A stretch of 64,000 bases of DNA from Nannocystis bainbridge (GCF_028368995.1 NZ_JAQNDL010000003.1:352001-416000); one strand, 5' to 3'; numbered from the stretch's first letter, positions 160 through 64,000 are shown. Translations and numbers: made by a program. The notes: generated by a model from the letters alone, not told the origin.

Positions 160-2406
160 TCACTTGCGGGCGCGTGGCCTCTCGCCGCCGTCATGTTGCT
201 GCGGCCCGCGCACGCTCGCCACGCCGAGGAACCCACGCAACCACGCGTGACAGCGCGGCAGCACCTGCTCCGGCGTCAGCGACACCGCCTCCGGCATGTG
301 CAGCAGCAAGATCTCGGCGACGCGCTGCGGCGCCCACGACTGCCGCGCCACCCACTGCCAGTCGGCCGCGACCTGCCCCCGGCGCTCCTCGGGGAACGCC
401 GCCTCCGGGCGGCTCAGCGCCAGCAGCAGCGCGTGCACATCGTTTCGCCGGATCTCCGTGCGCGTCGGCACCAGCCGGCGGTCGACCGCATATAAGAGGA
501 TGACCACCACGAACGCCGCCAGGCGCTGCAGCCGCGGCTCGGACTCCGTCGCCGCCCGTGCGCGCGCCAGCTCGAGGTCTCGCGCCAGCTCGGGCGCCCC
601 GTCGGGCGTCAGCCGACTCGCCAGCTCGAGCGCCGCGTCGATGTGAATCAGCCGCGGGCTCAGGTTGCCGGCGCTGCGCGGGCCGGGCGGACGGGTCTCG
701 CCGAGCTCCGCGAGCAGGGCTCGGTCGAGCGCCGCGTCGAGGTCCTGATCGCGGGCGAGCACGACCTCGAGCACCTCGCGCTGCAGCAGCTCGTCGTCGG
801 CGGCGAGGCTCACGAGGGCCAGCTCGAGCAGCAGCGCGCGCTGGAACAGATCTCGCACCGTCCGGACCTCGGGCGGCGGGGTCTCGGCGAACAGCGCGGC
901 GGTCGTCACCGGGCACGCCGCGCCGCCCTCGGCGAGCACGTAGCCGAGCGGCGCGGCGCGCAGCAGCGGCAACGCGAACGTGCCCCACATCTCCTGCAGC
1001 CCGGCCAGCGCCTCGAACAGCGGCCGCGGCCGGATCGCGTGGTCGTCGACCTCGAACAGCCGCTCGCGCCCCGGCAGCCCGCGGTGCAGCACGAACGCGT
1101 GCTCCGGCCGCCACCAGCCCGCGCGGCGCCCGAACACCAGCAGCCGCGCCATCGCGTCGTCGCGCTCGCCGGCCGCGCCCGCGGCGAGCGGCGCCAGCCC
1201 GTCGGGCACCTGATCGCGGACCGCCGCCACCGGGCACCCGCCGGCCGCCCAGCCCTGCGCCGCCGTGCGCAGCGCCGCCTCGCCGACCGGCGCCAGCGCC
1301 GGGTCGCGGCCCAGCGCGTCGCCCAGCTCCGGGTGATCGTGGACCCCCGCCGCCGCCACCAGCGGCGCGACCCACTCGGCCCGCTCGCTCGCCGCGATCG
1401 GGCTGTCGCGATCGGCGACGATGCGCGCCATGAGCAAGCGGTGTGCCGGCCGCCCCGGCTCGAGCACCGCGAGCAGCTGCCGCTGCATCGCCTCGAGCGA
1501 GTCGGGCGCGACCTCGGTGCGGGCCAGCAGCACCAGCAACATCGCCAGCGTCACCGGCCGGCGCGCCAGGGCCCGCCGCGCCGGCGAGCCGTCGATCGCC
1601 GCCCGCACTCGCACCGCCGTCGCCGGCTCGAACGCCCCCGGCAGCCGCACCCAGCGATCGACGAAGCGGTCGATCGCCGGCCGCGCCAGCGGTTGCAAGT
1701 ACACCCGCCGCAGCGTCCCCGCCGCGCGCAGCGCTTCGAGCTCCGGCACCTCGGGCGAGCGCGTGGTCAAGAGCACCGGTGCCCCCGCCGCGCACAGCTC
1801 CGCGGCCCACCGCGCCGCCGCCTCGCGCTCCGGCTCCGGCAGCTCGTCGAGCCCGGCGATCAGCACCAGCGGCCGCTCGCGGCGAGCTCGCAGCTCGGCC
1901 GCGTTGAACCCCGGCGCGAACGCCCGCCGCACGTCGTGCTCCACCAGCGACCACCAGCGCTCCAGCGCCTCGGCCACCGTCTCGCAGCTGTCCCAGCGGA
2001 CATCCATGCCGAGCATCCCCAGCGGCCCGCGCACCGTCCGTCCGCACACCACCAGCGGCACCGGCAGCGCGTCACCCAGCCGCGCCCGCGCCCCGGCCGG
2101 GCCGCACAGCCCGAGCAGCAGGTCCTGCACCAGCGTGCACCCGCCGGCCCGCGTCGAGCCGACCGCCCACAGCGGTGACATGGCCGATGGGTCATGTCCT
2201 TGGAGACATGTCTCGAGGGACTGACCGCACTCCGCCAGCGTCGCCTCGTCGTCGTCGTCGTCGGCGACCGGCGCCGGCCCGACCCGCAGCGCGCGACACA
2301 GCTCGTGCCACACCACCGCCTGGTCGGGCGACATCAGGTCGTCGATGAACGACTGCCCGAGGCGGAGCTCCAACCACTGGCGGTAGGTCTCGTCGGCCGC
2401 GGGCAT
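160..2406 (-). CDS. NACHT/STAND-like NTPase domain protein with degenerate P-loop and helical C-terminus
   Basis: Walker B-like LVLIAGLDEL, sensor-like VLLTTR, LQPLARPAIDRFVDRW and LARRPVTLAML match the NACHT layout. The Walker A position reads VGSTRAGGCTL (no Lys). Start set at ATG 2406 (MPAADETY); upstream ORF sequence looks non-coding. Confidence 0.6.
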   Translation of the reverse strand: MPAADETYRQWLELRLGQSFIDDLMSPDQAVVWHELCRALRVGPAPVADDDDDEATLAECGQSLETCLQGHDPSAMSPLWAVGSTRAGGCTLVQDLLLGLCGPAGARARLGDALPVPLVVCGRTVRGPLGMLGMDVRWDSCETVAEALERWWSLVEHDVRRAFAPGFNAAELRARRERPLVLIAGLDELPEPEREAAARWAAELCAAGAPVLLTTRSPEVPELEALRAAGTLRRVYLQPLARPAIDRFVDRWVRLPGAFEPATAVRVRAAIDGSPARRALARRPVTLAMLLVLLARTEVAPDSLEAMQRQLLAVLEPGRPAHRLLMARIVADRDSPIAASERAEWVAPLVAAAGVHDHPELGDALGRDPALAPVGEAALRTAAQGWAAGGCPVAAVRDQVPDGLAPLAAGAAGERDDAMARLLVFGRRAGWWRPEHAFVLHRGLPGRERLFEVDDHAIRPRPLFEALAGLQEMWGTFALPLLRAAPLGYVLAEGGAACPVTTAALFAETPPPEVRTVRDLFQRALLLELALVSLAADDELLQREVLEVVLARDQDLDAALDRALLAELGETRPPGPRSAGNLSPRLIHIDAALELASRLTPDGAPELARDLELARARAATESEPRLQRLAAFVVVILLYAVDRRLVPTRTEIRRNDVHALLLALSRPEAAFPEERRGQVAADWQWVARQSWAPQRVAEILLLHMPEAVSLTPEQVLPRCHAWLRGFLGVASVRGPQQHDGGERPRARK
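2176..2213. repeat. 14-bp-period array (3 units) inside the NACHT-like CDS
   Basis: CATG cores at 2179, 2193, 2207 (gtgacatggcc / ggtcatgtcc / agacatgtct). Confidence 0.75.
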
Positions 2407-2647
2407 GCCGGTGGATCGTGCCCTACCCTCGGCGGGAGCGCCAAAACCCCGGCTCCACCGGCGAGTTCGCCCGGGCCTGCCGACCCGTGTCCGTCCGCGC
2501 GCACGCACCGCCGGCCTCGCACGAGCCCGTAAGCGCGCCCGCAGGTGGCCCCCGGGCGGGGGCGAGGTCGTCGGCCCCCGCTGCCCGTGGAAGTGACCTC
2601 GGTTCGGCCCGGAAGCGCTTCGGACCGCGCCGCGTCGACGGCGCGCC

Positions 2648-4323: not shown

Positions 4324-4765
4324 CCTGACTCAGGGCACATCTCACCCGCGCCGAACGACCTGTCCCGACGGACACATTGCCCCGCGACGATTACCTCTCG
4401 GAGGGACGTGCACCGCGCGGCGCACCGATATGCTGTGAAAGCCACCCGCCGCGAATCTATCTATCCCGAAGGACACATCGAAACGCCGCTTACCGACCTG
4501 CCCTGAAGGACACATCGAAACGCAACGTACCGACCTGCCCTGAAGACCTGTCGTCCCCCCTCGACATGACCTGAAGAACACCTCGCGGCCGCGAGACATG
4601 TCCCCAAGGACACCCCCGCGCCGCCACGAGCCTCGCGCCGCCGACCTGTCCCCGGGGCCAGCTCAGCTCCGCCGCCGCGCGAGACATGTCCCCAAGGACA
4701 CCCCCGCGCGCCGCCACGAGCCTCGCCGCCGACCTGTCCCCGGGGCCAGCTCAGCTCCGCCGCCG
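4324..4765. repeat. Composite repeat region: paired 14-bp-spaced motifs, 37-bp direct repeat and 88-bp direct repeat
   Basis: gaaggacacatcgaaacg...accgacctgccctgaag recurs with period 37 (4474/4511, 4497/4534). gcgagacatgtccccaaggacaccccc...gacctgtccccggggccagctcagctccgccgccg recurs with period 88 (4597/4685, 4645/4733). Confidence 0.85.
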
Positions 4766-7198
4766 CCGACGCAGCCCCAGCAGCCCGCCGAGCAGCCACC
4801 ACGGGGCAGGCTCCGGCCCGCTCGCGCAGCCGCAGCCGCGGCGCTCTTGCGGGCACGTCGTCGCCAGCGCCGCAGCACCTGCCGCGGCCGGCCCCGGGCT
4901 GCCCTCGCCGGTGTGCGACCGGGCCCCCGCCACTCGCAGCCCGCCGACCCCCAGCTCGTCCAGCAGCGCGCCCGCGTCCTCGACCTGGTCGAGCAACCAC
5001 AGCAGGTAGCGTACGTCGACGATGATGTTGCGCGAGCGCTCGCTGTAGCCGAAATCGCCGGCGATGTTCTCCCACACCCGGTCGAAATTGAGGCCGATGA
5101 ATTGCCCGCGGCCGTTGATCACCGGGCTGCCGGAGTTGCCGCCGGTGGTGTCGGCGCTCGACAGGAAATCGATCGGCACGTCGCCGAGGATCGGGTCGGC
5201 CCAGTACGTGTCCCTGGCCTTCGGGACAGCCGCGAGCACCCGCTCCGGCATCGTGAACGGCTCCTCGCCGGTGACCTTCGCCAGCTGCCCCGACAGCGTC
5301 GTCTGCGGGGTCGCCATCAGCCCCTCGCGCGGCTTGTAGCCGGCGATCGACGCGTACGACAGGCGCAGCGTGCCGTTGGCGTCCGGGTAGACCGGCCCGG
5401 AGCGGACCTTGCGGAGCATCGTGAAGTAGGCCGGGCCGAGCCGCGACAGCACCCCCGCGCGCGTCTCGCCCCGCGCCTCGGCCGCCTCGATCGCCGGCGC
5501 CAGCGCCAGCGCCAGCGCCACGATCGGGTCGCCGCTGGCCGCCAGCGCGGCCGGGTCGGCGGCGTCGAACAGCCCCTTCGCCTTGCCCTCGCCCAGCAGC
5601 TTGGTGCGCGCGATCAGCTGCCGTGCCTGCTTGAGGTAGCGCTCGCGCCCCGAACCTGTCTTTGCGTCCATGTCCTTGAAGGCAGCCGCGCCGAGCACCC
5701 CCACCATCTTCGCCGCAGCTGCCTCTGGGGACATGTCCTTGAAGGCATACAACTTCCAGCCGGCCGGCAGCGCCTGCGCGCGGGCGATCACCGACGCCAG
5801 CAGGTGGGCCTCGACCTCCGGATCGAAGTCGCGGAGGCGCCGCTCCTGGCGGTCCCACAGCTTCTTCTCGTTGCGGTCCATGTAGCCCGCCGAGCGCTCG
5901 AGGTCGGGCTTTTGCCGCTCGCGCGCGCGGCGGACCAGGTCGATCGCCAGCCCCAGCAGGTTCGGCCCGTTCGGCACCTGCTCGAGCAGGTAGTCGTGGG
6001 CGAAGCTGTCCTTGCGGTCCTGGCTGAGCGCGCGCAGGGCCGGCAGCACCTTCTGAAACGCGCGGTCGTCGGCCTCCGCGGCCCACTTCTCGAGCGCGGC
6101 CTCCTCGGCGCGGCGGCGCTCGAGCAGGCCGATCGCCGAGAACCCGGCCAGCATGCCGCGGGCGTTCTTCAGCCGGTTGGCCAGGCTCTTCTTGCTCGAC
6201 GCCACCTTGATCCCGCGCGCCTTGTCGGTCGCGCCGAGCTCCTCGAGGATCGCCACCCACTCGCCGAGCAGGTCGATGCGGGCCGGGAAGATCTGCGACT
6301 CGTGGCGCTCGACCTCCGACAGCGGCAAGTAGCGCTCCGTGTTGCCCGGGTAGCCGAGCACCGCCACGAAATCGCCGGCCTTGACCCCCGTGTGCGCCAC
6401 CGGCAGCCACGCCTGCGGCTTGTAGGGCACGTTGGCCTCGGCCTTGTCCGCCGGCTCGCCCGCGGCGCCGACGTACGCGCGCAGCAGCGTGAAGTCGCCG
6501 GTGTGGCGCGGCCACATCCAGTTGTCGACCTCGCCGCCGAACTCGCCGATCGCCGCCGGCGGCGCGTACACCAGCCGCACGTCGCGGAGCTCGCGGTAGG
6601 TGAAGCGCTGGAACAGGCTCATGTTGTAGAACGCCGCCACCTCGCAGCGCAGCCCGCCGCCCGGCTTCTCGCAGGCGTCGACGAGCTGCTTGCGGGCGCG
6701 GTCGATCGCCTGCGCCCGCGCCCGGTCGTCCTTCAGCGCCGACGCCTCGGCCAGCACCTCGGCGGTGACGTCGTCGATGCGCTCGAGCACCCGCACCGTC
6801 AGGCCCTTGCCCGCCAGCTCCTCCGCGCGTGTGCGGGCCAGGAAGCCGTCCTTGAGGTAATCGTGCTCGACGCTGCTGACGGCCTGGATCGCCCCGTGCG
6901 CGCAGTGATGATTGGTGGCGATCAGGCCCTCGGCCGACACGAACGCCGCCGAACAGCCCGACAGGTTGACGGCCGCGCGCATAAGCCCGGTGTTGTCGCT
7001 CCACAGCTGCTCCAGCGGCAGCTCGAGGCCCATCGCGCTCAGCTTGCCGCGGTCGAGCTCGACGATCTGGCCCGGCATCCACTGACCCTCGTCGGCGCGG
7101 GCCGGTGCGGCCGTCAACGCGACGACGGCGACGAGCCCGAGGCAGCGGGCGGAGCGCGACAGGACGAGGTGCGGCCGGGTGTGCATCCCGGCCACCAT
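4751..7198 (-). CDS. S46 family dipeptidyl peptidase (DPP11-type) with C-terminal MYXO-CTERM sorting signal
   Basis: Signal peptide then DEGQW, GCSAAFVS, TNHHC (His), DNWMWPRHTGDF (Asp), YPDANGTLR, TTGGNSGSP (Ser), FDRVWE. C-terminus GCGCASG..PWWLLGGLLGLRRRRRS. Confidence 0.92.
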   Translation of the reverse strand: MVAGMHTRPHLVLSRSARCLGLVAVVALTAAPARADEGQWMPGQIVELDRGKLSAMGLELPLEQLWSDNTGLMRAAVNLSGCSAAFVSAEGLIATNHHCAHGAIQAVSSVEHDYLKDGFLARTRAEELAGKGLTVRVLERIDDVTAEVLAEASALKDDRARAQAIDRARKQLVDACEKPGGGLRCEVAAFYNMSLFQRFTYRELRDVRLVYAPPAAIGEFGGEVDNWMWPRHTGDFTLLRAYVGAAGEPADKAEANVPYKPQAWLPVAHTGVKAGDFVAVLGYPGNTERYLPLSEVERHESQIFPARIDLLGEWVAILEELGATDKARGIKVASSKKSLANRLKNARGMLAGFSAIGLLERRRAEEAALEKWAAEADDRAFQKVLPALRALSQDRKDSFAHDYLLEQVPNGPNLLGLAIDLVRRARERQKPDLERSAGYMDRNEKKLWDRQERRLRDFDPEVEAHLLASVIARAQALPAGWKLYAFKDMSPEAAAAKMVGVLGAAAFKDMDAKTGSGRERYLKQARQLIARTKLLGEGKAKGLFDAADPAALAASGDPIVALALALAPAIEAAEARGETRAGVLSRLGPAYFTMLRKVRSGPVYPDANGTLRLSYASIAGYKPREGLMATPQTTLSGQLAKVTGEEPFTMPERVLAAVPKARDTYWADPILGDVPIDFLSSADTTGGNSGSPVINGRGQFIGLNFDRVWENIAGDFGYSERSRNIIVDVRYLLWLLDQVEDAGALLDELGVGGLRVAGARSHTGEGSPGPAAAGAAALATTCPQERRGCGCASGPEPAPWWLLGGLLGLRRRRRS
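5652..5752. repeat. Two short 14-bp-period arrays inside the S46 peptidase CDS
   Basis: Cores at 5655, 5669, 5683 and 5718, 5732, 5746; they encode a duplicated AFKDM peptide. Confidence 0.65.
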
Positions 7199-10808: not shown

Positions 10809-10918
10809 CTGCCTGTCCTCGCGGACATGTCCTCGGGAGCCTGTCCTCGGGAGCCTGTCCTCGCGGACATCTCGCTCCGCCCAAAAACACGAAGGGACAT
10901 GTCCTCACGGACATGTCC
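10809..10918. repeat. 14-bp-period array (5+2 units) between convergent genes
   Basis: Cores at 10812, 10826, 10840, 10854, 10868, then 10898, 10912; starts immediately after the stop at 10808. Confidence 0.9.
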
Positions 10919-10954
10919 CTTTCGACGCTCCAGGCTACGCGAGCCCGTCGCGGA

Positions 10955-11914
10955 TCACGCCGGGATGGCGCAGGCGCCGATGTTCTCCTGGCCCGGAGGG
11001 GCCATGCCCTCGGTGTACCAGGGCACGCACTCCTGGCCGTCGGCCATGCCGGGGCAGGTGTTGGGCTCCTGGACGTTGCAGTACGAGCTGCAGCAGCCGT
11101 CGGCGTTGTCGCAGCCGGGCACGGACTCGGGCGTGGCGCAGTACAGGCCGTAGTCGCACACGTTGATGTAGGCGCACGGGTCGCCGTAGGCGCCCATGTC
11201 GCCGCTGGCGTCGAAGTCGCAGATGAACTGGTCGAGGCCGTCGAAGAAGCAGATCTGGCCCGCGGGGCAGCTCTGGATCAGCGGGTCGCAGGTCTCGAGG
11301 CAGAGGATCAGCACCCCGTCGTTCGACACGTCGCAGGTCTGGCCCATGTCGCACGACGGCGTGTCGGGCGTGCCCTTGCACATGTCGATGCACGAGCCGT
11401 TGTTGTTCTCGTCGAAGTACCAGCACAGCAGGCCGATGTCGCAGGTGTCGACGCCGCTGACCGCGCTGCCCTCGACCGTGCACGGATCGCCTTCCTTGCC
11501 CGGGTTGGCGTCGATCGGCGAGCACTTGGTGGCGTTCCACGAGCTGGCGCCGTTGTCGGCCCACGGCATGCACTTCTGGCCCGACGGGCAATCTTGCGTC
11601 CACACGTCGCACTCCTTCACGCCGCCGCCGCCGTCGGGCGGGGTGATGAAGGAGCCGTCGGTGGTGTCGGGGCCGACGCTGGTGGCGCTGTCTTCGGTGG
11701 TCGTCGGGTTCGGCGCCGTCGTCGTGACCGGGTTGGTCGAAGTCGTCCCGTCGCTCGTCCCGCCGCCGGTCGACGTGTCGCCCTCGGTCGCGTCGTTGGT
11801 CGGATTGGTGCTCGGGTTGGTCGCGTTGGTCCCGCTGCCCTTCCCATCGTCTTCTTTACAGGCTCCCAGCGCCAGCGCGGCGCCGATGACAGTGAATCGA
11901 ACGTAATTGAGCAT
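10955..11914 (-). CDS. Cys-rich myxobacterial lipoprotein
   Basis: Lipobox LGAC, Thr-rich linker, CDVWTQDCPSGQKCMPW..., more than 20 Cys, GGAG RBS upstream. Confidence 0.85.
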   Translation of the reverse strand: MLNYVRFTVIGAALALGACKEDDGKGSGTNATNPSTNPTNDATEGDTSTGGGTSDGTTSTNPVTTTAPNPTTTEDSATSVGPDTTDGSFITPPDGGGGVKECDVWTQDCPSGQKCMPWADNGASSWNATKCSPIDANPGKEGDPCTVEGSAVSGVDTCDIGLLCWYFDENNNGSCIDMCKGTPDTPSCDMGQTCDVSNDGVLILCLETCDPLIQSCPAGQICFFDGLDQFICDFDASGDMGAYGDPCAYINVCDYGLYCATPESVPGCDNADGCCSSYCNVQEPNTCPGMADGQECVPWYTEGMAPPGQENIGACAIPA

Positions 11915-14659: not shown

Positions 14660-18743
<4,084 letters not shown>

Positions 18744-18749
18744 CCTTTC

Positions 18750-18781
18750 AGGCATGTCCTCTCCGACAGGTCCGTAACACC

Positions 18782-18801
<20 letters not shown>
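18750..18801. repeat. 14-bp-period array filling the sucB-lpdA gap and covering the lpdA ATG
   Basis: CATG 18753, CAGG 18767, CATG 18781 (start codon at 18782), CCTT 18795. Confidence 0.8.
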
Positions 18802-21878: not shown

Positions 21879-21882
21879 TCGT

Positions 21883-21948
21883 CTACATGTCCCCCGGGGC
21901 ATGTCCTGAAGCGCATGCGCCATAGGACATGTCCTCAGGAGCATGTCC
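21883..21948. repeat. 14-bp-period array (5 units)
   Basis: CATG at 21886, 21900, 21914, 21928, 21942; begins about 5 bp after the stop at 21878. Confidence 0.95.
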
Positions 21949-22042
21949 TGAAGTGACCATCGGTGCGACGCCCCTCGGCGTCGCCCTCGCGCCGCGGAGG
22001 CCGGACTCCGGCTGACGCAGGCCTCGCCCGCGAGCGGGCACG

Positions 22043-22074
22043 AAAAAGGGCGGCGCGGTCGCCCGCGTCGCCCT
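22043..22074 (-). terminator. Intrinsic terminator after the LeuA-family gene
   Basis: Minus strand AGGGCGACGCGG-gcga-CCGCGCCGCCCT followed by TTTT. Confidence 0.75.
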
Positions 22075-28892: not shown

Positions 28893-29852
<960 letters not shown>

Positions 29853-29861
29853 GCCGCCCGG

Positions 29862-29941
29862 GGACCTGTCGCTTCAGCCAGGTCCCATCGCACATGGCCA
29901 TCAGGCCATGAATCTACGGACAGGTTCTTCGGGACCTGTCC
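29862..29941. repeat. 14-bp-period array (6 units) filling a convergent gap
   Basis: Cores CCTG 29865, CAGG 29879, CATG 29893, CATG 29907, CAGG 29921, CCTG 29935. Confidence 0.92.
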
Positions 29942-29947
29942 GTTCGT

Positions 29948-33287: not shown

Positions 33288-33518
33288 ATGCGTCGTGACG
33301 TCCGCGAACTGCTCGCGCTGATCGCCGCCGGCCTCGTCCTCGGTGCGCTGCACCTGGCTCTTCGGCCAGATCTGCCGTGGGTCCCGCCGCCCCGGGAAGA
33401 GGAGACCATGTGCGGCGAGGTCGAGCCCGACCTCGAAGCCTCCGCCGACGACGGGGCGCCCGCCTCGTTCGCCCCGGCGGCGCCGATGTCCAGCCCGGGC
33501 CCGGAGGATGTCCGATGA
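33288..33518 (+). CDS. Small membrane-anchored protein
   Basis: ELLALIAAGLVLGALHLALRPDLPW TM segment; ATGA overlap with the next gene. Confidence 0.6.
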   Translation: MRRDVRELLALIAAGLVLGALHLALRPDLPWVPPPREEETMCGEVEPDLEASADDGAPASFAPAAPMSSPGPEDVR

Positions 33519-33555
33519 GCCAGGTTCAAGAGGACATGGCCGATCGGGCATCCCG
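33504..33555. repeat. Degenerate 14-bp-period array across a gene junction
   Basis: GATG 33507, CAGG 33521, CATG 33535, CATC 33549. Confidence 0.55.
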
Positions 33556-37659: not shown

Positions 37660-37671
37660 AGCTGCCTGAAG

Positions 37672-37751
37672 GGGCATGTCCTGCGGGGCATGCCCTCATG
37701 GGCATGTCCAAACGAGCATGTCGCATCGGACATGCTCCATCGAACATGTGA
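37672..37751. repeat. 14-bp-period array (6 units) filling a convergent gap
   Basis: CATG at 37675, 37689, 37703, 37717, 37731, 37745. Confidence 0.95.
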
Positions 37752-37757
37752 CGATCT

Positions 37758-38954: not shown

Positions 38955-39476
38955 GTGAGCGCGAGCAGAGAATTTGTCGTGCGCATCGGCGAGCGCGAGC
39001 TCGTCGCGCGAGTGACCGCCTCCGACCCGCCCGTCGTCGTCGTCGACGGCGTCGCCCACGAGGTCACGCCGGTCGCCGGCGGGCGCAGCCACGTGCGCGT
39101 GCAGGGCGAGGCGGCCCAGCGGATCGTCAGCCTCGACGGCGCGGCCTCGCCGACGGCCGCCGCGATCGGCGGCGTCGCCTTCGCCCTCGACGTCCGCACA
39201 GCCCAGGCGGCCGCCCGCGACGCCGCCCTCGCGGCCACCGGCAGCGCCAGCGCCGGCGGCGGCCTCGTCAAGGCGCCCATGCCCGGTCGCGTCGTCCGCG
39301 TGCTCGTCAGCGCCGGCCAGACCGTCGAGCGCGGCACCCCGCTCGTCATCGTCGAGGCCATGAAGATGGAGAACGAGCTGCTGGCCACCGTCGCCGGCGT
39401 CATCAAGGCCGTGCACGTCGGCGAGGGCGTCGCCGTCGACGCCGGCCAGGCCCTGGTCGAGCTCGACCCGTCCTGA
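38955..39476 (+). CDS. Biotin carboxyl carrier/biotinyl domain protein
   Basis: KAPMPGRVV..VEAMKMENE; start estimated. Confidence 0.9.
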   Translation: MSASREFVVRIGERELVARVTASDPPVVVVDGVAHEVTPVAGGRSHVRVQGEAAQRIVSLDGAASPTAAAIGGVAFALDVRTAQAAARDAALAATGSASAGGGLVKAPMPGRVVRVLVSAGQTVERGTPLVIVEAMKMENELLATVAGVIKAVHVGEGVAVDAGQALVELDPS

Positions 39477-39477
39477 A

Positions 39478-39515
39478 GGTCATGTCCTGAGGGACCTGTC
39501 CGATTGACCATCTGA
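39478..39515. repeat. 14-bp-period array (3 units) filling a convergent gap
   Basis: CATG 39481, CCTG 39495, CATC 39509. Confidence 0.8.
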
Positions 39516-41434: not shown

Positions 41435-41459
41435 GCGCCCGCCGGACCTGCCCTCGGGC

Positions 41460-41530
41460 CAGGCTCCCGCGCGAGCCTGCTGAGGTCTCTTTGGACATCA
41501 ACCTTGGGTCAGGCTCTCCGCGCGAGCCTG
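41460..41530. repeat. Two copies of a small hairpin CAGGCTC..GAGCCTG
   Basis: Copies at 41460-41479 and 41510-41530. Confidence 0.65.
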
Positions 41531-41531
41531 G

Positions 41532-41611
41532 CAGCATGTCTCTTCAGACATGACCTTCGGGACATTCCCGTACGCGCATGTCCCGAAGGTCATGTCCTTC
41601 AGGACATGACC
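41532..41611. repeat. 14-bp-period array (6 units)
   Basis: Cores 41535, 41549, 41563 (CATT), 41577, 41591, 41605; ends about 10 bp from the TetR stop. Confidence 0.93.
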
Positions 41612-41621
41612 TCCGCACGCC

Positions 41622-47995: not shown

Positions 47996-48001
47996 CCCTG
48001 C

Positions 48002-48138
48002 GGACATGCCCGCCCAGACATGTTTCTAAAAGCATGCCCGATCGGACATGTCCTTCAGTGCATGTTTCGAACCAGCGGTCGCTGTTGAGTATGCCCGATC
48101 GGGCATGTCCTTCAGTTCATGTCCATGCGGACATGCCC
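48002..48138. repeat. 14-bp-period array (5+4 units)
   Basis: CATG 48005, 48019, 48033, 48047, 48061; then 48090 (TATG), 48104, 48118, 48132. The block atgcccgatcggrcatgtccttcagt is duplicated. Confidence 0.95.
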
Positions 48139-48281
48139 GGCCGTGCCCACCTATTCGGCCGCTCGGCGCTCGCCCCGATCCGGCGGTCGCTATTCACCCC
48201 GCCGCGCGACGCATCGTCGTCGACCGCCGTCCATCGCTGAACTGTCGCCGTGTGGCGCGAGCGCTCGGCCAGCGCCACGAT

Positions 48282-48319
48282 CGACATGCTCCTCAAGACA
48301 TGCCCGCGAGGCCATGTCC
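48282..48319. repeat. 14-bp-period array (3 units)
   Basis: CATG 48285, 48299, 48313. Confidence 0.85.
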
Positions 48320-48334
48320 CAGGGACCAACCCGC

Positions 48335-52356: not shown

Positions 52357-53708
52357 TGCTGTCGTTCGTCCACGGTCTGCTGCTCGCCGCCCTGCTCGCC
52401 CCGGCCCTCGCGCCCGCTCCCGAGCCCGAGCCCGCTCGAGGCCCCGCGCCCGAACCCGCCGACGCCCCCGCCCCCGCGAACCCGTCCGCGCCTCCGCCCG
52501 CGCGAGGCCCCGCGCCCGAGCCCGCCGACGCCCCCGCACGAGGCCCCGCGCCCGAGCCCGCCGACGCCCCTGCGCCCGCGCGTGGCCCCGCACCCGCCCC
52601 CGCGCCGAGCGTCGCCCCGATCGCCGCCGCGCCGCTCGACGAACCTGTCCCCGAGGACATGGCCGCTGCGCCAGCCCTCGACAGCCCGGTGGCGATCAGC
52701 GCGCGCGTGACCCCCGACCCCTCGCAGATCGGCGACCTCCTCAAGCTCGAGGTCACCGTCGCCTACCCGACCGGCTACGCCGTCAACGTCCCGCTCGGGC
52801 TCAAGCTCGACCCGATGTACCTGGTGTCGGTCGAGGAGAGCGAGCCCGAGAGCACTGGCCAGGGCCTGCGCAAGGTCTTCACCTTCACGATCCAGCAGTT
52901 CGCCGTCGGCGAGGGCAAGACCCCGAGCTTCCCGATCACCTACGTCGCCCCCGACGGCGCCGTGCAGACCGCCCAGGTCCCGTCGCACAACTTCGGCGTC
53001 ACCGCGCTGCTGGCCAACGAGGCCGACCCCAAGCGCCAGGGCGAGGACCCCCCGGTCTCGCTCGAATACCCCAACAACACCGCCGAGACCGCGATCTACT
53101 TCACCGCCGGCGCGCTGGTGGCCGGCTTCGTCTCGGCGCTGCTGTGGCTGCGCTGGCGTCGGCGGCCGCGCCCCGTCGTCCTGCCGCCGCCCGAACCGGC
53201 TGACCGCGTCGCCCTGCGCGCGCTCGATCGCCTCAAGGAGGCCGACTACGCCGGCCGCGGCGAGTTCCAGCTGCACTACCTCATGCTCACCGAGATCCTC
53301 AAGGGCTACCTCGAGGGCCGCTTCGGCATCGACGCCCTCGAGCGCACCACCGACGAGCTGCGGGCCGCCCTGCTCCGCTCCGAGGCCGAGATCGCCCCGC
53401 TCAAGCCGACCGACGTGATCCGCTTCCTTCAGCAGTGCGACCTCGTCAAGTTCGCCCGCTTCGCCCCGCCGCCGACCGAGGCCGCCGCCGCCGTCGAGCA
53501 GGCCCGCGGCATGGTCGTGGCCACCACCGCGGTCGCGGCCGCCCCGACGACCGGTCCCAAGGACCAGGTCCCGAAGGACAGGGCCCCCGAGACATTGCCC
53601 CAAGACCAGGGTGCAAAGGACATGTCCTCCGCGCCAGCCCACAAGTACCCGCCCGAGTCGGACATCCCGACCGAGCCGGTGCCGCGGTTCAAGGGGGGTG
53701 ACGAGTGA
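52356..53708 (+). CDS. Bat-operon membrane protein (DUF4381/BatD-like) with Pro-Ala repeats
   Basis: Signal, ARGPAPEPADAP repeats, Ig-like domain, TM segment, YLEGRFGIDALERTTDEL, CDLVKFA. Confidence 0.8.
   Translation: MLSFVHGLLLAALLAPALAPAPEPEPARGPAPEPADAPAPANPSAPPPARGPAPEPADAPARGPAPEPADAPAPARGPAPAPAPSVAPIAAAPLDEPVPEDMAAAPALDSPVAISARVTPDPSQIGDLLKLEVTVAYPTGYAVNVPLGLKLDPMYLVSVEESEPESTGQGLRKVFTFTIQQFAVGEGKTPSFPITYVAPDGAVQTAQVPSHNFGVTALLANEADPKRQGEDPPVSLEYPNNTAETAIYFTAGALVAGFVSALLWLRWRRRPRPVVLPPPEPADRVALRALDRLKEADYAGRGEFQLHYLMLTEILKGYLEGRFGIDALERTTDELRAALLRSEAEIAPLKPTDVIRFLQQCDLVKFARFAPPPTEAAAAVEQARGMVVATTAVAAAPTTGPKDQVPKDRAPETLPQDQGAKDMSSAPAHKYPPESDIPTEPVPRFKGGDE
53548..53627. repeat. 14-bp-period array (6 units) in the C-terminal tail of a CDS
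   Basis: Cores 53551 CCGG, 53565 CAGG, 53579 CAGG, 53593 CATT, 53607 CAGG, 53621 CATG. Confidence 0.8.
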
Positions 53709-54781: not shown

Positions 54782-54789
54782 GCAGCCTC

Positions 54790-55018
54790 GTACATGTCTC
54801 CAAGGACATGCCCCTTCGAGCATGCCCCCGAGGCCATGCACTCTCGGACATGTCTCTCGCGCACGCCGCGGAGGCCCGCACGAGCCCCGCCGCCCGAGCA
54901 CCGGCCGCGCTCTCCCGGACTCCTCGCTCGCGCGCGCCCGTGGCCCTCCTCTCCACGTGTCTCCAAGGACATGCCCTTCCGGGCATGCTCCTCGGGACAT
55001 GCGCTCCTGAACATGTCC
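54790..55018. repeat. Two related 5-unit 14-bp-period arrays in the batA-batB gap
   Basis: Cores 54793, 54807, 54821, 54835, 54849 and 54956, 54970, 54984, 54998, 55012; both blocks begin tgtctccaaggacatgccc. Confidence 0.95.
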
Positions 55019-55043
55019 CTCAAGCCCGCCCGCGGAGGTGCGC

Positions 55044-56213
55044 ATGAGCCCCGCCGAAGTGGTCCGCGACCTGGCCCAGGACGCCGAGACGAAGGACGTC
55101 CTGACCCTCTTCGAGGAGGTCGTGCTCGCCCGCGAGGACCTGTTGTGGCTGCTCGTGCTGGTGCCGCTGGCCGCGGCGGCCTACCTCTGGGCCGCCCGCC
55201 AGCGCCGGCGCGGCCTCGCCAGCCTCGGCAGCCCGATCCTGGTCGAGCGCCTGGTCGGCAGCGTCAACCATGCCAGCCGGGTCGTCGCCGCCGTCGTCTC
55301 CGTGCTCGCGGTGCTGCTGCTGTCGGCCGGCCTCATGCGCGTGCAGTACGGCGGCGAGACCACCATCGTCGCCACCACCGGCCTCGACATCGTGCTCGCC
55401 GTCGACTACAGCAAATCGATGCTCGCCCGCGACGTCTACCCGTCGCGCAGCGAGCGACTCGCCGCCGAACTGCAGCGCTTCCTCGACGAGGCCGACCGTC
55501 GCGGCGACCGCGTCGGCCTGGTGGTGTTCGCCGGCGCCGCGCGCGGCCTGCCCGTCAGCCGCGACGCTCGCGTCCTCAAGCTCTACCTCGACAAGGCCGA
55601 CCCGCGCACCGAGAACCCCGGCGGCACCGCGATCGGCAAGGCGCTCAAGCTCGCGCTCACCTTCCTCATCGATGCCCGCCGCGCCGCCGCGGCCGGTCCC
55701 GAAGGCGGCCCGACCAAATCGATCCCGACCAGGGAAGGCAAGGCCGTCGAGGACATCCCGCCCTCCGAGTCCGACCAGGTCGTCATCCTCCTGACCGACG
55801 GCGAAGACACCGTCTCGCGCCCGCTCGAGATCGCCGCCGAGGCGGCCAAGCTGGGCGTACGGATCTACACCGTCGGCATCGGCTCGAAGTCCGGCGAACC
55901 GATCCAGAAGTTCGACAGCGAGGGCAACCCCGACGGCTTCGTCACCGACGAGCAGGGCAACTACCTCATGACCCGCGTCGACGAGGCCACCCTCAAGGAC
56001 ATCGCCAAGACCACCGGCGGCGACTACGTCCTCGTCGAGCCCGACAAGTTCGGCCTCGACCGCGTGTCCGAGTGGATCCGCGAGCTCTCGAAGGGCCAGC
56101 GCGAGGACACGGTCACCGCCCACCGCGAGGAGGGTTACGCCTTCCTCATCATCCCCGCGCTGCTGCTGCTCGCGCTGTCGCTCGCGCTGCCCGAGCGCAA
56201 GAAGGGGCCCTGA
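55044..56213 (+). CDS. batB: BatB-like VWA domain membrane protein
   Basis: GLDIVLAVDYSKSM, DRVGLVVFAG, GTAIGKAL, LTDGED, IYTVGIG. Confidence 0.88.
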   Translation: MSPAEVVRDLAQDAETKDVLTLFEEVVLAREDLLWLLVLVPLAAAAYLWAARQRRRGLASLGSPILVERLVGSVNHASRVVAAVVSVLAVLLLSAGLMRVQYGGETTIVATTGLDIVLAVDYSKSMLARDVYPSRSERLAAELQRFLDEADRRGDRVGLVVFAGAARGLPVSRDARVLKLYLDKADPRTENPGGTAIGKALKLALTFLIDARRAAAAGPEGGPTKSIPTREGKAVEDIPPSESDQVVILLTDGEDTVSRPLEIAAEAAKLGVRIYTVGIGSKSGEPIQKFDSEGNPDGFVTDEQGNYLMTRVDEATLKDIAKTTGGDYVLVEPDKFGLDRVSEWIRELSKGQREDTVTAHREEGYAFLIIPALLLLALSLALPERKKGP

Positions 56214-56378
56214 TCGATGCAGCTCTGCCGGACACCCGTCTCCCCGCCCCGCAAGAAGGGGCCCTGATCGATGCAGCTCTGCCGGACACCCCTCTCCCCG
56301 CCCCGCGAGAAAGGGCCCTGATCGATGCAGTTCTGCCGGACATCCTCCGTCGCCCCGCCCCGCGAGAAAGGACGCTGA
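56198..56378 (+). repeat. 54-bp tandem repeat (about 3.3 copies) starting at the batB 3' end
   Basis: caagaaggggccctgatcgatgcagctctgccggacaccc.tctccccgccccg; TGA at 56211, 56265, 56319 and a partial copy at 56376. Confidence 0.92.
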
Positions 56379-56382
56379 CCCC

Positions 56383-57222
56383 GTGCCGCTCGTATCGACC
56401 AGTAAGTTGCTCGCCGTCATCCTCGCTGCCGGCTGGCTCGCCGAGGCGCTCGCCGGCAAGAACGGCGACATCGAGGCCGGTATCGCCGCCTACACCAGCG
56501 GCGACCACGAAGCCGCCCTCGCCGCTTACGCCGCCGCCGAGGCCGAGTTCGGCGAGCGCCCCGAGATCTTCTACAACCGCGGCCTGGCGCTCGTCGCCAA
56601 GGGCGACAAGGACGAGGCCCGCAAGGCGTTCGAGCGCGGCACCGAGTCCACGCACCCCGACGTCCACTCGAGCTCCGAATACGAGCTCGGCAACCTCGAC
56701 CTCGACGCCGAGGCCTTCGACCCCGCCATCGAGCACTACATCAAGTGCCTCAAGGCCAAGCCCGACCACGCCAACGCCAAGTGGAACCTCGAGCTCGCCC
56801 TGCTGAAGAAGAAGCAGAAAGAGGAAGAGGAGAAGAAGAAGCAAGAGGAAGAAAAGAAGGACGAAGAGAACAAGGACGAAGAGAAAAAGGACGAAGAGAA
56901 GCAGGACGAAGAGAAAAAGGACGAGCAGAAGCAGGACGAGAAGAAGGACGAAGAGAAAAAGGACGAGCAGAAACAGGACGAGAAGAAGGACGAAGAGAAA
57001 AAGGACGAGCAGAAGCAGGACGAGCAGAAGCAAGACCAGCAGAAGCAAGACCAGCAGAAGCAGGACGAGCAGAAGCAGGAGAAGGGCGAGCAGCCCCAGC
57101 CGCAACCGCAGCCTCAGCTCGACAAGGCCGACCTCGACAAGGCGCTCGAGCAGCTCGACGCCGAGGACAACTTCCAGCTCGACCGCCCCTCGCGCCAGAT
57201 CCGCGTGGAGAAGGACTGGTGA
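56383..57222 (+). CDS. batC: BatC-like TPR protein with K/D/E/Q low-complexity region
   Basis: YNRG, YELGN, NAKWNLELA, KKDEE/QKQD repeats, terminal EKDW. Confidence 0.88.
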   Translation: MPLVSTSKLLAVILAAGWLAEALAGKNGDIEAGIAAYTSGDHEAALAAYAAAEAEFGERPEIFYNRGLALVAKGDKDEARKAFERGTESTHPDVHSSSEYELGNLDLDAEAFDPAIEHYIKCLKAKPDHANAKWNLELALLKKKQKEEEEKKKQEEEKKDEENKDEEKKDEEKQDEEKKDEQKQDEKKDEEKKDEQKQDEKKDEEKKDEQKQDEQKQDQQKQDQQKQDEQKQEKGEQPQPQPQPQLDKADLDKALEQLDAEDNFQLDRPSRQIRVEKDW

Positions 57223-59218: not shown

Positions 59219-59398
59219 GCCACCCGCCCCCGGTCGTGCCGGTCGGCCTCCCCCCGACACCCGCGGGCCCTCGCGCTCGCCCGCAGCCTGCCGTCCTCCG
59301 AGGCTCTCCTGAACCGCCCTGACCCCGCCTCCTCGCCCGACCGAACCCAGGACTCGTCCCCGCCTCCGCCGCGCGACCGACCCCGCTCGACAGAACTC

Positions 59399-60752: not shown

Positions 60753-61109
60753 ACCCCGCCCCTGGCAGCTCGCCGGCGCCTCGCCCGAGCGAAGGTCCGC
60801 TCGCTCTCGCAGCCCGAGCTGCGACGGAGCGCAGCCGAGGCGCTCACGATGCCGGCTCCTCTGCGGCCTTCGCCGCGACCAGACTCGCGCTCGTCGGGCC
60901 GCTCGAATCACCCGTCGCTGAACTCGCCCGCGAGCCGCTGTCGGTATCGCCATGCGCCGCCGGCCCACCCAGCGTCATGGACCCGAGGATTGTCGATACA
61001 CCGATCGTCTGAACCATCGCTCGCCAGGCTACTCGCTCCGCGACGCCGCGCAATGGACGACTCGAGTTGGTGCTCACGAACTCCAGTGGGGTATCCGCGG
61101 CCGAGCACA

Positions 61110-61147
61110 GAGCATGTCCCATCGAACATGTCCTCACAGACATGCGA
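61110..61147. repeat. 14-bp-period array (3 units)
   Basis: CATG 61113, 61127, 61141. Confidence 0.85.
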
Positions 61148-61341
61148 TGATCATGCCAGCCCACGCGCACGCTGCAAGACACAACCGAGCTTGGGGCTCA
61201 CCAACTCCGCTTGCGAGTTTGCCTCACGCCGGTGCCCACGAAAAAGCACTGGTTCGAGATCCACCGCCAGCTACATCTCTCGTCACCATGCTCGAAGCCA
61301 TCGCTCCACGAGCCGACCCCGCGACGCCCGAGGCCTGCCCG

Positions 61342-62460
61342 TCACCCGGGGATGTCGGCCGCGAACTCGAGCACCACTGTCTCCGCCGGCATCGCCGACG
61401 ACGGGGCCACCAACGATCCGATCGTCCACCCCTGCCCGCCGCTGGCCCGCAGGGCCTCGACCAGCGCCGCAGCCCGCTCAGCGGGCACGGTGAGCAGCAG
61501 CCCGCCGCTGGTCTGGGCGTCGGCGGCGAGGATGGTCCGCAGCGGTTCTTCGCGGCCCTCGACGACCAGGTTCGGCCGCACGAACGCCAGGTTGGCCTTC
61601 GAGCCGCCCGGGACGCGTCCGGCCGCCGCGTGGCCGAGCGCCCCGGGCAACGCGGGCAACGCCGCCATGTCGAGGCGCGCCGCCAGCTGCGACCCGCGGA
61701 GGATGTTGCGCAAGTGCCCGAGCAGGCCGAAGCCGGTCACGTCGGTACAAGCGGTCACGCCGAAGCCGCGCGCGATCGCCAGCGCCGGGCCGTTCAGCGT
61801 CGTCATGCTGGCGATCGCCGCGGCCATTTCGCCCGCCTCCGCCTGCCCCTGCTTGATCGCCTGGGCGATGAAGCCGGTCCCCAGCGCCTTGGTCAGCACC
61901 AGCGCCTGTCCTTCGCGCCCTGTCCGATTCGACAGGACCTCCGAGACAGCCACCTCGCCCGTCACGCTGAGCCCGAATTTGAGCTCCCCGTCGCGGACGG
62001 TATGGCCGCCGACCACCGCCACGCCGGCGCGGCTGCAGGCCCGCGCCGCGCCGCGCAGGATCGCCTGCAGCACCGACAGCGGCAGCTTGTCGTCGGGGAA
62101 GCCGACGATGTTGAGGGCGAACAGCGGGCGCCCGCCCATCGCGTAGACGTCCGACAGCGCGTTGCAGGCGGCGATCTCGCCGAACGTCTCGGGGTCGTCG
62201 ACCAGCGGCGCGATGACGTCGACGGTCAGCACGGTCGCCCGCGTCGGGTCGTCGCCGACGCGCACGACCGCCGCGTCGTCGGCGAACTCCGTGCCGACGA
62301 TGACCCGCGCGTCACCCCGTTCTTCGGGCGGGGGCATGCCCTCCAGGACCTGAACCAGGTCACCCAGCCGCAGCTTGGCGGCTCAACCTCCGCCGCGGGC
62401 AAACTCGGTCAAGCGGAGCGGTCGGGGGGCATCGCGCGGATCGTCGGGCTCGCTGCTCAT
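61342..62460 (-). CDS. selD: Selenide, water dikinase; selenoprotein with in-frame UGA (Sec26)
   Basis: [17 protein letters not shown] continues in frame into [48 protein letters not shown]; UGA at 62383-62385. Confidence 0.93.
61902..61953. repeat. 14-bp-period array (4 units) inside selD
   Basis: CCTG 61905, CCTG 61919, CAGG 61933, CAGC 61947. Confidence 0.7.
62347..62382 (-). promoter_or_regulatory. Putative bacterial SECIS element of selD
   Basis: After UGA: GCCGC-caagct-GCGGC, then GACCTG-GTT-CAGGTC hairpin with its loop G 28 nt downstream of the UGA. Confidence 0.65.
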
Positions 62461-62505
62461 GCACGAGCAGTGTATCGCAGACCCCGGGCCGCTACACTGC
62501 GGCGC

Positions 62506-64000
62506 ATGGCCAAGCCCGTGCGTGACCTGGTCCTCGGGACCGCCGGCCACATCGACCACGGCAAGACCGCCCTGGTCCGCGCCCTCACCGGCGTCGACAC
62601 CGATCGCCTGCCCGAGGAGAAGCGCCGCGGGATCACCATCGACCTCGGCTTCGCCGCCTGGCAGCTCGGCCCCGGCCTGGTCGCCAGCATCGTCGACGTG
62701 CCCGGTCACGAGGCCTTCGTCCGCACCATGGTCGCGGGCGCCGGCGGGGTCGACGCCGTGCTCCTGGTCGTCTCGGCCGAGGAGGGCGTGATGCCGCAGA
62801 CGCGCGAGCATCTGCTCGTCTGCCGCCTCCTCGGCATCACCCACGGCGTGGTCGCCCTCAGCAAGGTCGATCGCCTGAACGGCGACGACGAGGCCCTCGC
62901 GCTGGCTGAAGCCGACGTGCGCGCCGCCCTCGAGGAGCTGGCCCCGGGCCTCGCCGCCGCCCCGATCCTGCCCTGTTCGGCGCACACCGGCGCCGGCATC
63001 TCCGAGCTCTCCGCCGCCGTCCGTCGCGTCGCCGCGGCGCTGCCCGCCCGCCCCACGCGTGACCGCCCGATCCTCCCGATCGATCGCTGCTTCGTCCTCA
63101 AGGGCCACGGCACCGTCGTCACCGGCACCTTGCTCTCGGGCCAGCTCGAGATCGCCGCCGATCCCTACCTCACCCTCGTCCCTGGCGAGCAGCGCCCGGT
63201 CCGCCCGCTGCGGGCCCGCGCCCTGCATGTTCGCGGGGCCGCGGCCACGCGCGTGCCGGCGGGCGCGCGCGCGGCGGTCAACCTCGGCGGGGTCGCGGTC
63301 GCCGAGTTGGCCCGCGGCGACGTGCTCACCCGCGGTCACCGGGTCGTCGCCGCGGCGGCCGTCCACGTCCTCCTCGAGCACCTGCCGCACGACACCCGCA
63401 CCTGGCGCAGCGGCACCAGCGTCCAGGTCTGCGCCGGCACCGCGCACACCACCGGTCGCCTCGATCCCCTGGGTCCGCGGGACGGCGACGAAGATGCCCC
63501 GAAGACCATGTCCATTCCGCCAGGTGCTTCGGCGCTGGTGCGGATCCGCCTCGACGCTCCTCTGCCCGCCTGGCACGGCCAGCGGCTGGTCCTCCGCAGC
63601 CAGGGCGGCGACCTCGTCCACGGCCATACGTGCGGCGGCGGCGTCGTCGTCGACCCCGGGCCTCGCCCGGGCCGGGGCCAGCGGAGCCGCTGGCTGCGGG
63701 TCGCTCGCGCCCTCGCGGGATCGGACCTGCGCGCCCGCGTGACCGCGCTGCTGGCCGATGCCGGCGCCCTCGCCATCTCGCGCGACGAGCTCGAGCTGCG
63801 GGCCGGTACGCACGATCTCGATGCTGTCCTTTCAGACATGTGCCAGAGCACCGACGCCGTGCGGCTCGGCGACAGCCGACACGTCGCCGCCGCCGTGCTG
63901 CCCGAGCTGGCCGCCGCTGCCGTCGCCGTCGCCGTGCGGTTCCAGGCCGCCCACCCCGACCGCCCCGGTCTGTCGCGCGCCGCCTTGCTCGGCGGCCTGC
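62506..64000 (+). CDS. selB: Selenocysteine-specific elongation factor (partial, runs off the window)
   Basis: Read directly, absent from the ORF track: [80 protein letters not shown]. Confidence 0.95.

Follow-up and report, generated by a model that had tools for sequence, protein, structure and literature searches.

Arrays of a 14-bp palindromic unit at 3' ends of transcription units in the genus Nannocystis

Nannocystis bainbridge possesses a family of cis elements, each an array of a short palindrome repeated with an exact period of 14 bp, that are located at the 3' ends of transcription units and are specific to the genus Nannocystis. They were studied in a window of 64,000 nucleotides, which is the whole stretch of DNA analyzed (C2:352001-416000 of assembly G000; 11,048,555 bp in five contigs, 90.5% complete), in the entire assembly and in other genomes. 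What calls for an explanation is that a single consensus with a single exact period persists at 1385 loci and from species to species, amid surroundings that decay. The explanation that we tentatively favor, at somewhat less than an even chance, is a cooperative protein lattice on duplex DNA that would form a boundary behind genes.

The 14-bp unit consists of GGACATGTCC plus four variable bases. A motif matrix (position weight matrix, PWM) was built iteratively and used with a cut-off of >6 bits for matches; its consensus is nnGGACATGTCCnn. Information decays outwards from A6 and T7 (about 2.1 bits each) through C5, G8, A4 and T9 (about 1.1-1.2 bits) to the spacer positions (0.16-0.33 bits), a profile like that of a binding site. 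In the window (71.6% G+C, 253 CATG), CATG pairs are found 33 times at a distance of 14, 22 times at 28, 13 times at 42 and seven times at 56, versus none at 13 and one at 15. An independent run of Tandem Repeats Finder gives arrays of period 14 at nine places (10814, 21899, 37670, 37703, 39470, 41535, 53549, 54967 and 61106). Genome-wide, 3736 CATG pairs lie 14 bp apart, whereas a distance of 13 is found 72 times and one of 15 is found 262 times, and additional peaks occur at 28, 42, 56, 70 and 84; the autocorrelation at 14, 28 and 42 had been anticipated by the original prediction, a note made from the window's sequence alone. PWM matches are spaced by 14 in 6117 cases, versus 71 at 13, 147 at 15 and only 26 at 14 in the reversed genome. 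Chaining of these matches gives 3398 arrays of at least two units (9797 units, about 1.2% of the 11-Mb genome at 14 bp each) and 1385 arrays of at least three, the longest having 12 and 17 scored units. One consensus is common to 1385 dispersed arrays, with an almost empty reversed-genome control. Single strong palindromes outside arrays number 2253, versus 617 in the reversed control; most lie inside called genes, and we make no claim on them, since coding DNA, in which GAC-ATG-TCC uses favored codons, is not well controlled by reversed sequence.

The lattice can equally be read as alternating half-sites GGACA and TGTCC, spaced by 0 and 4 bp. The dyad TGTCC-N4-GGACA occurs 1987 times in the genome, versus 16 times with N3, five with N5 and three with N6. 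The palindrome, the strict 14-bp lattice and the alternative reading as dyads all stand as originally predicted. Furthermore, 28-31% of array ends carry one additional half-site facing the array, versus 2% in the background, which indicates that half-sites are modules by themselves. Neighboring arrays within one gap have no common phase (478 pairs, uniform modulo 14). Hence, the spacing constraint acts within the array.

The arrays follow gene ends. Genes were called by a crude caller based on the contrast in G+C content at third codon positions (GC3), which gives exact stops and rough starts (8131 genes, 83-85% coverage). Among the 830 arrays of at least four units, 697 are intergenic, 50 lie across a gene end and 83 are inside called genes, part of the latter being miscalls, for instance at 17683 in the window. 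By type of gap, 420 arrays of this size are convergent, 287 co-directional and 28 divergent. Similarly, arrays of at least three units are held by 495/1295 convergent gaps (38%), by 230/1944 (11.8%) and 190/1837 (10.3%) of the co-directional gaps on the plus and minus strand, respectively, and by 61/1426 divergent gaps (4.3%). At the median, 17-20 bp separate the stop and the first palindrome; the distance to the downstream start is about 170 bp. These data bear out the proposed tie to stop codons and convergent gaps, and the stop codons named in the original prediction coincide with called open reading frame (ORF) ends.

Moreover, the stop-to-array distance (d) has two preferred phases, both located where TGA fits the motif with one mismatch. 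The stop lies either within TGAcc-N4-GGACA (d mod 14 = 6, n = 203) or within TGAcatgtcc (d mod 14 = 11, n = 196), compared with about 60-80 for the least used phases. Eight of the 102 tRNA genes have an array at most 200 bp downstream and one or two have an array upstream. Their presence behind tRNA genes means that arrays are linked to where transcription units end and not to translation as such.

Classical terminators, made of a hairpin and a T-run, are also present in this organism and are conserved across species. All three 5S rRNA genes are followed by such a terminator and by no array (C1:2062846, C1:4462953 and C5:64878 in G000). A canonical one serves the minus-strand gene at about 22035-22070 of the window, beyond the array 21881..21950. 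A simple scan of convergent 3' ends found a hairpin and T-run at 28/975 ends with arrays (2.9%) and at 38/1473 ends without (2.6%), an equal frequency that does not discriminate between the two classes. The best 50-nt window has a free energy of about -25 kcal/mol in every class of gap, divergent ones included, which is uninformative at 71% G+C. With classical terminators at 2-3% of ends, the closing of transcription units and the separation of converging polymerases are poorly understood in myxobacteria of such genome size, and the element gives a concrete point of entry.

The element is a trait of the genus Nannocystis. The two-unit pattern was found in 8/10 other genomes of the genus, in 0/14 other genera of the family and in 0/16 genomes from the other families of the class. 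Among 185,579 species, each represented by one genome, 78 loci match, of which 75 are in records titled Nannocystis, Nannocystaceae or Myxococcales bacterium; the three matches outside the genus (L014, L019 and L069) are isolated two-unit hairpins and were rejected as arrays. The exact three-unit pattern has no match in the genome contig collection. A looser three-core pattern matches 850 times in G000 (0 times backwards, 11 times with period 13 and 0 with period 15) and 475-536 times in each of five large relatives. It matches seven and five times in the fragmented genomes G002 and G006 of the same genus, and is absent from G004 (64% complete) and from G011 and G024, which belong to other genera.

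Different species keep the arrays at the same gene ends. Synteny with four sister species (G001, G005, G007 and G010; 88-95% identity) extends over the whole window, and the alignment blocks break at array gaps. In the larger array gaps of the window, arrays are present in all four relatives, usually directly past the same stop and with similar unit numbers, whereas the units and the spacers are not the same and what is left of the gap is unalignable. At least two in-phase units occur at the orthologous gap in 48 of the 56 array-by-species comparisons for which flanks were found; the array at 48000 and most of that at 48280 have no usable flank and are outside these comparisons. The misses come from 10821 (present in 0/4), from the probably coding 53546 (1/4) and from 61108 (3/4). 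Between orthologues, identity amounts to 0.44-0.51 for spacers, 0.58-0.75 for the arms and 0.88-0.95 for CATG, compared with 0.31-0.39, 0.45-0.68 and 0.64-0.93 when the same arrays are placed on non-orthologous arrays. Orthologous spacers are thus homologous, but near saturation. The core and the exact phase are kept and the spacers turn over.

A search for RNA expression data gave only metagenome and metatranscriptome contigs, which share 6-14% of the sampled words; the four that were aligned come from related organisms (90-99% identity) and the alignments stop at array gaps, for instance at 37695/37764 and 54783/55025. These contigs carry no information on transcript ends, strand or level, and no conclusion is drawn from them. 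The arrays are break points in alignments of related contigs and constitute hypervariable markers for the typing of Nannocystis strains.

Arrays arise and change in length by duplication and loss of whole units. This is visible in arrays of eight near-identical units, in a duplicated block of four units (56 bp) and in identical spacers within an array, which make up about 4% of pairs, a 3-fold excess over the background. Most units are nevertheless unlike their neighbors and fit the genome-wide consensus. The original prediction had opposed the arrays to slippage repeats; this does not hold throughout, since array growth is clearly driven by unit duplication and some arrays are plain slippage products.

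Such growth raises the possibility of a selfish or neutral, slippage-prone, minisatellite-like repeat that spread in the ancestor of the genus and survives without function where it is harmless, i.e. behind genes and not in promoters. The near-identical arrays, the duplicated block, the excess of identical spacers, the variation of unit numbers between species and the 850 triple-core matches in G000 versus 475-536 in relatives are consistent with this, and so is a distribution resembling that of repetitive extragenic palindromes (REP) and miniature inverted-repeat transposable elements (MITE), which avoid divergent gaps. Nevertheless, we consider this explanation unlikely. One consensus at 1385 loci is impossible by independent slippage. 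The same gaps are occupied in five species with cores and phase kept, although the spacers are near the non-orthologous control. One-base phase breaks are almost absent, and arrays abut stops in two phases where TGA fits the motif.

Furthermore, no mobilizing enzyme was found. A search for the Y1/RAYT transposase (IS200/IS605-like, PF01797), whose gene usually has REPs on its flanks, gave 0 matches in G000, at its completeness of 90.5%, and the same search was positive in 6/14 control genomes, E. coli among them. Arrays lie on both sides of 201/8131 genes, and four of the ten families of these genes were scanned against Pfam. None resembles a mobilizing enzyme: a Cys-rich family gave no hit, two others matched an ALK/LTK glycine-rich domain and a histidine kinase, and one member of the fourth gave no hit. 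The Cys-rich family is the largest of these, 6 of its approximately 30 paralogues being flanked on both sides. Its members (P0001, P0002) are about 300 amino acids long and have no Pfam hit; they are probably secreted, judging by eye from a start that resembles a signal peptide. They include the window gene 10955-11914 on the minus strand and C1:3451384-3453269 of G000.

Whether the arrays are kept as DNA or as RNA was addressed through pairing. Covariation was tested on units flanked by two strong units, their own score being disregarded in order to avoid ascertainment bias. The Watson-Crick fraction at the intra-unit pairs 2-11 and 3-10 equals that expected, without any excess of complementarity. 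At pair 4-9, covariation is negative (0.326 observed versus 0.404 expected; 199 doubly changed G4/C9 units versus 265 expected), which is the outcome of threshold selection when binding energies are additive. Across the spacer, the five dyad pairs are also at expectation (for example 0.409 versus 0.407, 0.504 versus 0.509 and 0.551 versus 0.547). In addition, spacers do not vary as freely as originally supposed: CTTC/GAAG, TTCG/CGAA, GATC (5.3-fold) and TCGA (3.7-fold) are over-represented 3.7- to 6-fold, TAG-containing and GC-rich tetramers are avoided, and there is a tendency to palindromy and AT-richness (inner pair 347 versus 241 expected). Spacer use on the sense strand is symmetric (TTCG 68 versus CGAA 66; CTTC 76 versus GAAG 62), and this removes the argument drawn from tetraloops. 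The exact N4, the absence of covariation, the modular half-sites and the symmetric spacers favor a reader with fixed geometry over a structure kept by pairing.

Strand effects of replication and transcription were separated in co-directional gaps. Deviations from the consensus show a strong skew that goes with the replication (GC-skew) strand and is independent of the direction of transcription: spacer GC skew is 0.197, versus 0.086 in other intergenic DNA, and the G-rich strand has 316 GAAG versus 92 CTTC. GC skew itself is strong over contigs C1-C5 (about 0.06-0.1) and changes sign near C3:1.5 Mb and C1:4.25-4.5 Mb, probably the terminus and the origin; gene orientation is nearly unbiased relative to it (3561 versus 3757). 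The skew of the arrays, more than twice that of other intergenic DNA at variable positions, together with CATG as the invariant core, could point to an element acting in single-stranded DNA or linked to replication, either through hairpins in the lagging-strand template or through clustered CATG methylation sites read after replication. We regard this as highly improbable. The skew is a general enrichment in G, strongest in transversions, and looks mutational rather than structural, its size being unexplained; moreover, the arrays follow gene ends and not replication landmarks, and the frequency of CATG outside arrays is close to the compositional expectation.

Returning to the protein lattice, the arrays would be kept by a sequence-specific reader acting in trans. 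Most likely, this would be a dimeric DNA-binding protein sitting on each duplex dyad and polymerizing cooperatively along the lattice. Successive sites would be rotated by about 120 degrees, so that three units would correspond to four helical turns. A nucleoprotein block just behind stops would then act as a boundary. Read-through and converging polymerases could meet it as a roadblock or insulator, or it could be a barrier of a topological kind. The existence and nature of this reader, its boundary function and its roles in the nucleoid, in termination or in supercoil handling are what we infer from the pattern of the sites. A broader form of the proposal is that Nannocystis marks many 3' ends (about 38% of convergent gene pairs) with a chromatin element, in which a helical protein filament on a 14-bp lattice would be a general transcription boundary, a roadblock terminator or a supercoil barrier; this is possible, but we hold it with low confidence. 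If true, it would be a boundary device based on a protein filament that has no described counterpart in bacteria. Since the motif and the spacing rule are sharp, the reader should be easily isolated.

Several observations weigh against a protein lattice. The DNA-binding lattice originally proposed has gained from the exact N4 (1987 versus 16, 5 and 3), the missing covariation and the strand-symmetric spacers, but no cognate protein was found, no systematic search having been made. Gene positions rest on the crude GC3-based caller. The exact period would also be copied automatically by slippage, and the identity of orthologous cores is inflated by the consensus, non-orthologous arrays already reaching 0.82-0.93 at C and A. 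Spacers two positions apart are reverse complements of each other with a 2.7-fold enrichment (61/1844 pairs); a dyad symmetry of the whole array was rejected as a general design, because it applies only to this minority of pairs. Adjacent units with complementary asymmetric cores (CCTG by CAGG) are about twice as frequent as expected (31 versus 14.5 and 23 versus 11.8); together with the palindromic tendency of the spacer, they gave the only positive signals in the pairing tests. Six arrays fold with z from -2.5 to -8.1 relative to dinucleotide shuffles, and some of the long stems include spacers. Finally, deviations compatible with G.U exceed those of the A.C type on the sense strand of co-directional gaps, once the replication effect is taken out (t = 1.17, z = 4.2). 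This bias is driven by A>G at position 4 versus T>C at position 9 (t = 1.28) and also reaches t = 1.28 for arrays at most 60 bp from the stop, whereas the controls are flat (transversions t = 0.99, spacers t = 1.00); these figures include the first unit, as leaving it out created an edge artefact in the transversion control. Such a wobble-specific asymmetry of the sense strand fits RNA pairing better than DNA binding and keeps alive some selection at the RNA level.

The last three observations belong to a rival explanation, a transcribed element of the 3' untranslated region (UTR), in which the RNA would form chains of CAUGUCC-N4-GGACAUG hairpins or longer stems between units just behind the stop. 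Its roles would be the protection of mRNA 3' ends, pausing or termination without a U-tract, or stalling of the terminating ribosome, perhaps with an RNA-binding factor. The location of arrays 0-20 nt past stops and also after tRNA genes argues for it, as does the scarcity of canonical terminators (2-3% of 3' ends), which implies that other 3'-end devices are needed. There is also a precedent in E. coli, since one study states that nearly half of its REPs could stall ribosomes at the termination codon (PMC12306157). On the other side, the 5-bp dyad stems show no compensatory covariation, that within units being negative, and the absence of strand preference in the loops means that selection for UUCG or GNRA types is not seen. 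The loop length of 4 is fixed a hundredfold more strictly than the stability of hairpins requires, a classical terminator without array closes each of the three rRNA operons, and the 64-kb window searched on both strands gave 0 Rfam matches at the gathering score. Hairpins with tetraloops were the alternative offered by the original prediction; it has lost its loop argument and has no support from covariation, but the G.U-compatible bias speaks in its favor. We consider an RNA element a possible explanation, though a doubtful one.

In the window, the array finder gives 23 arrays of at least two units, 16 of them having at least three, in agreement with the more than 20 loci originally noticed. 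The core positions then cited were all correct, i.e. CATG at 21886/900/914/928/942, 37675...745, 48005...61 and 54793...849, and mixed cores at 29865-29935. The arrays are given here without assigned strand; orthologues are those of the four sister species, and z compares the RNA fold with dinucleotide shuffles.

The 5-unit array 21881..21950 begins 3 bp past the stop 21878 in a convergent gap and has orthologues of 5, 5, 5 and 4 units (z = -4.0). The array 29860..29943, a lattice of six positions with five scored units and mixed CATG/CCTG/CAGG cores, fills the convergent gap 29852-29948 and folds into three hairpins of adjacent units (z = -7.4). Similarly, the 6-unit array 37670..37753 fills the convergent gap between the stops 37659 and 37758 (z = -5.0); its orthologues have 4-5 in-phase units in gaps varying from 103 to 235 bp. 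Another 6-unit array (41530..41613) ends 8 bp short of the stop of a minus-strand gene at 41622 (z = -8.1), and its complementary spacers TTCG and CGAA give a 19-bp stem. Just upstream of it, at 41440-41530, are two G+C-rich hairpins (CAGGCTC-N6-GAGCCTG), one of which is held by the orthologues; they represent another type of 3'-end structure within this gap.

Other arrays directly follow or adjoin stops. The 3-unit array 2174..2215 lies in the gap after an ORF end (2178/2224), with 2-3 in-phase units kept in 4/4 sister genomes. The 3-unit array 18748..18789 starts 5 bp past the stop 18743 in a co-directional gap of 38 bp and has three in-phase units in 4/4 orthologues. The 2-unit array 39476..39503 overlaps the stop 39476 and is nearly invariant in five loci of four genomes. 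Past the stop 47995, a 5-unit array starts after 4 bp (48000..48069), and 5-7 units follow the same stop in 4/4 orthologues; a 3-unit array in the same gap (48099..48140) is out of phase with it, and a further 3-unit array (48280..48321) lies 14 bp before the stop of a minus-strand gene at 48335. The 5-unit array 54788..54857 starts 6 bp past the stop 54781, which lies within a CATGA that continues the lattice, and a 4-unit array (54965..55020) occupies the far end of the same gap. The 3-unit array 61108..61149 has in-phase units in 3/4 orthologues.

A 4-unit array (10821..10876) starts 13 bp past the stop 10808, and the spacer TCGG is identical in two of its units, which indicates a local duplication; this block is specific to G000, at least two in-phase units being found in 0/4 orthologues, which have single GCTGTCC-N4-GGACAGC dyads instead. 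The nearby perfect dimer GGACATGTCC-N4-GGACATGTCC (two units, 10893..10920) is conserved in 4/4 orthologues and lies next to the gene 10955-11914 for a Cys-rich protein on the minus strand, at its 3' end. The 5-unit array 17683..17752 (cores CCTG/CAAG/CAGG) is non-coding despite a gene call, because the lengths of its orthologues (61, 79, 67 and 91 bp) differ by non-multiples of 3.

The remaining matches are weaker. A 3-unit match at 33502..33543 is probably within a coding sequence and is possibly due to chance or an embedded array, its identity in orthologues (88-95%) being typical of coding DNA. Another one at 53546..53587, with CCGG/CAGG cores, is also probably coding (about 80% identity in orthologues; in phase in 1/4). 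The array finder alone reports the 2-unit match 5650..5677, which is of uncertain status as two-unit families include chance matches, and the likewise uncertain matches 52639..52666, 62330..62357 and 63488..63515 (two units each) and 61900..61941 (two scored units in a three-position lattice). The window also includes repeats of other kinds. An 88-bp direct repeat at 4590-4766 (two copies, 95% matches) contains GACATGTCC and GACCTGTCC cores outside any 14-bp lattice. Tandem repeats unrelated to the 14-bp element occur at 56196-56368, 56806-57084, 49481-49772 and 52397-52634; they comprise a 54-bp repeat present three times, a Lys/Glu-rich coding repeat (AAG/GAG, periods 15-42) and G+C-rich coding repeats of 21, 24 and 36 bp.

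Our literature searches, with supplementary files outside their scope, found no description of the element, in line with the original statement that it was not a recognized one. As for the genome note on N. exedens, its accessible part has nothing on repeats beyond 'complex and large repetitive regions'. The decamer GGACATGTCC is also a perfect p53 half-site (RRRCWWGYYY), a coincidence from which no biological link is drawn; among the papers listed with it, most deal with p53 and none with bacteria.

[quoted passage not shown] CRISPR arrays, whose repeats are 21-48 bp long with unique spacers of similar length and usually accompanied by a leader and cas genes, were rejected: here the core is 10 bp and the spacer 4 bp, in 3398 loci with a median of 2-6 units. 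MITEs, which have terminal inverted repeats and target-site duplications, were rejected because there are no flanking duplications or defined termini; the ends are ragged half-sites, and orthologues differ by unit number and not by an insertion versus an empty site. Copies that are more alike within a locus, as in loci with variable numbers of tandem repeats (VNTR), are found in a minority only (about 4% identical-spacer pairs and few homogeneous arrays). Like intrinsic terminators, the arrays lie behind genes and have a dyad symmetry usable from both directions. They were nevertheless rejected as such terminators, since they have no T-run, classical terminators are equally frequent with and without them, and the rRNA ends are array-free (3/3).

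As for repeat lattices, the fixed period, the degenerate sites with binding-site-like information and the absence of pairing covariation suggest that the arrays belong to this type. In parC/ParR, the omega heptads and the met boxes, the cooperative binding of neighboring ribbon-helix-helix or helix-turn-helix (HTH) dimers wraps the DNA into a helical filament. The arrays share with such iteron or centromere lattices the short head-to-tail units and the fixed period, and their information profile and missing covariation fit. These lattices occur once or a few times per replicon, by the gene of their binder, whereas the present arrays number 1385, at gene 3' ends, with no candidate gene beside them. 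Operators of the CRP/FNR type (TTGAT-N4-ATCAA) have a 5-4-5 architecture. TGTCC-N4-GGACA has the same 14-bp architecture, with half-sites as independent modules. Unlike these operators, which are single promoter sites, the dyads lie end to end and avoid divergent gaps (4%). HIP1 of cyanobacteria, BOX and NIME are lineage-specific short palindromes or modular repeats with hundreds to thousands of copies and an unresolved function. HIP1 differs from the arrays in being scattered, also within genes, and unphased, and the modules of BOX and NIME measure 45-150 bp.

The closest resemblance in distribution is to REPs and bacterial interspersed mosaic elements (BIME) of Enterobacteria and Pseudomonas, which include the REP-RAYT systems and REPINs. 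These are abundant and extragenic, lie behind genes or between convergent ones, and have been proposed to protect mRNA 3' ends, to terminate transcription or to bind gyrase or IHF. The arrays are likewise abundant short palindromes, extragenic, located behind genes and in convergent gaps near stops, tandemly clustered and lineage-specific, with 697/830 intergenic arrays and 38% of convergent gaps occupied. In one study, REPs are defined by a GTAG or CGTC tetranucleotide heading an imperfect palindrome of 20-40 bp (PMC3733652). In contrast, the unit described here is 14 bp long and self-symmetric, and neither tetranucleotide is present in its consensus nnGGACATGTCCnn or in the favored spacers. 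Its phase is exact to the single base in arrays of up to 12-20 units, and its copies are degenerate around a consensus, whereas REP copies are near-identical. Hence, the element resembles REP/BIME in its distribution and palindromy, and differs from them in unit size, in its strict lattice, in the absence of RAYT and in its mode of persistence. It broadens the REP/BIME concept by a RAYT-free case, in which the family seems to owe its uniformity to selection on a lattice and not to transposition.

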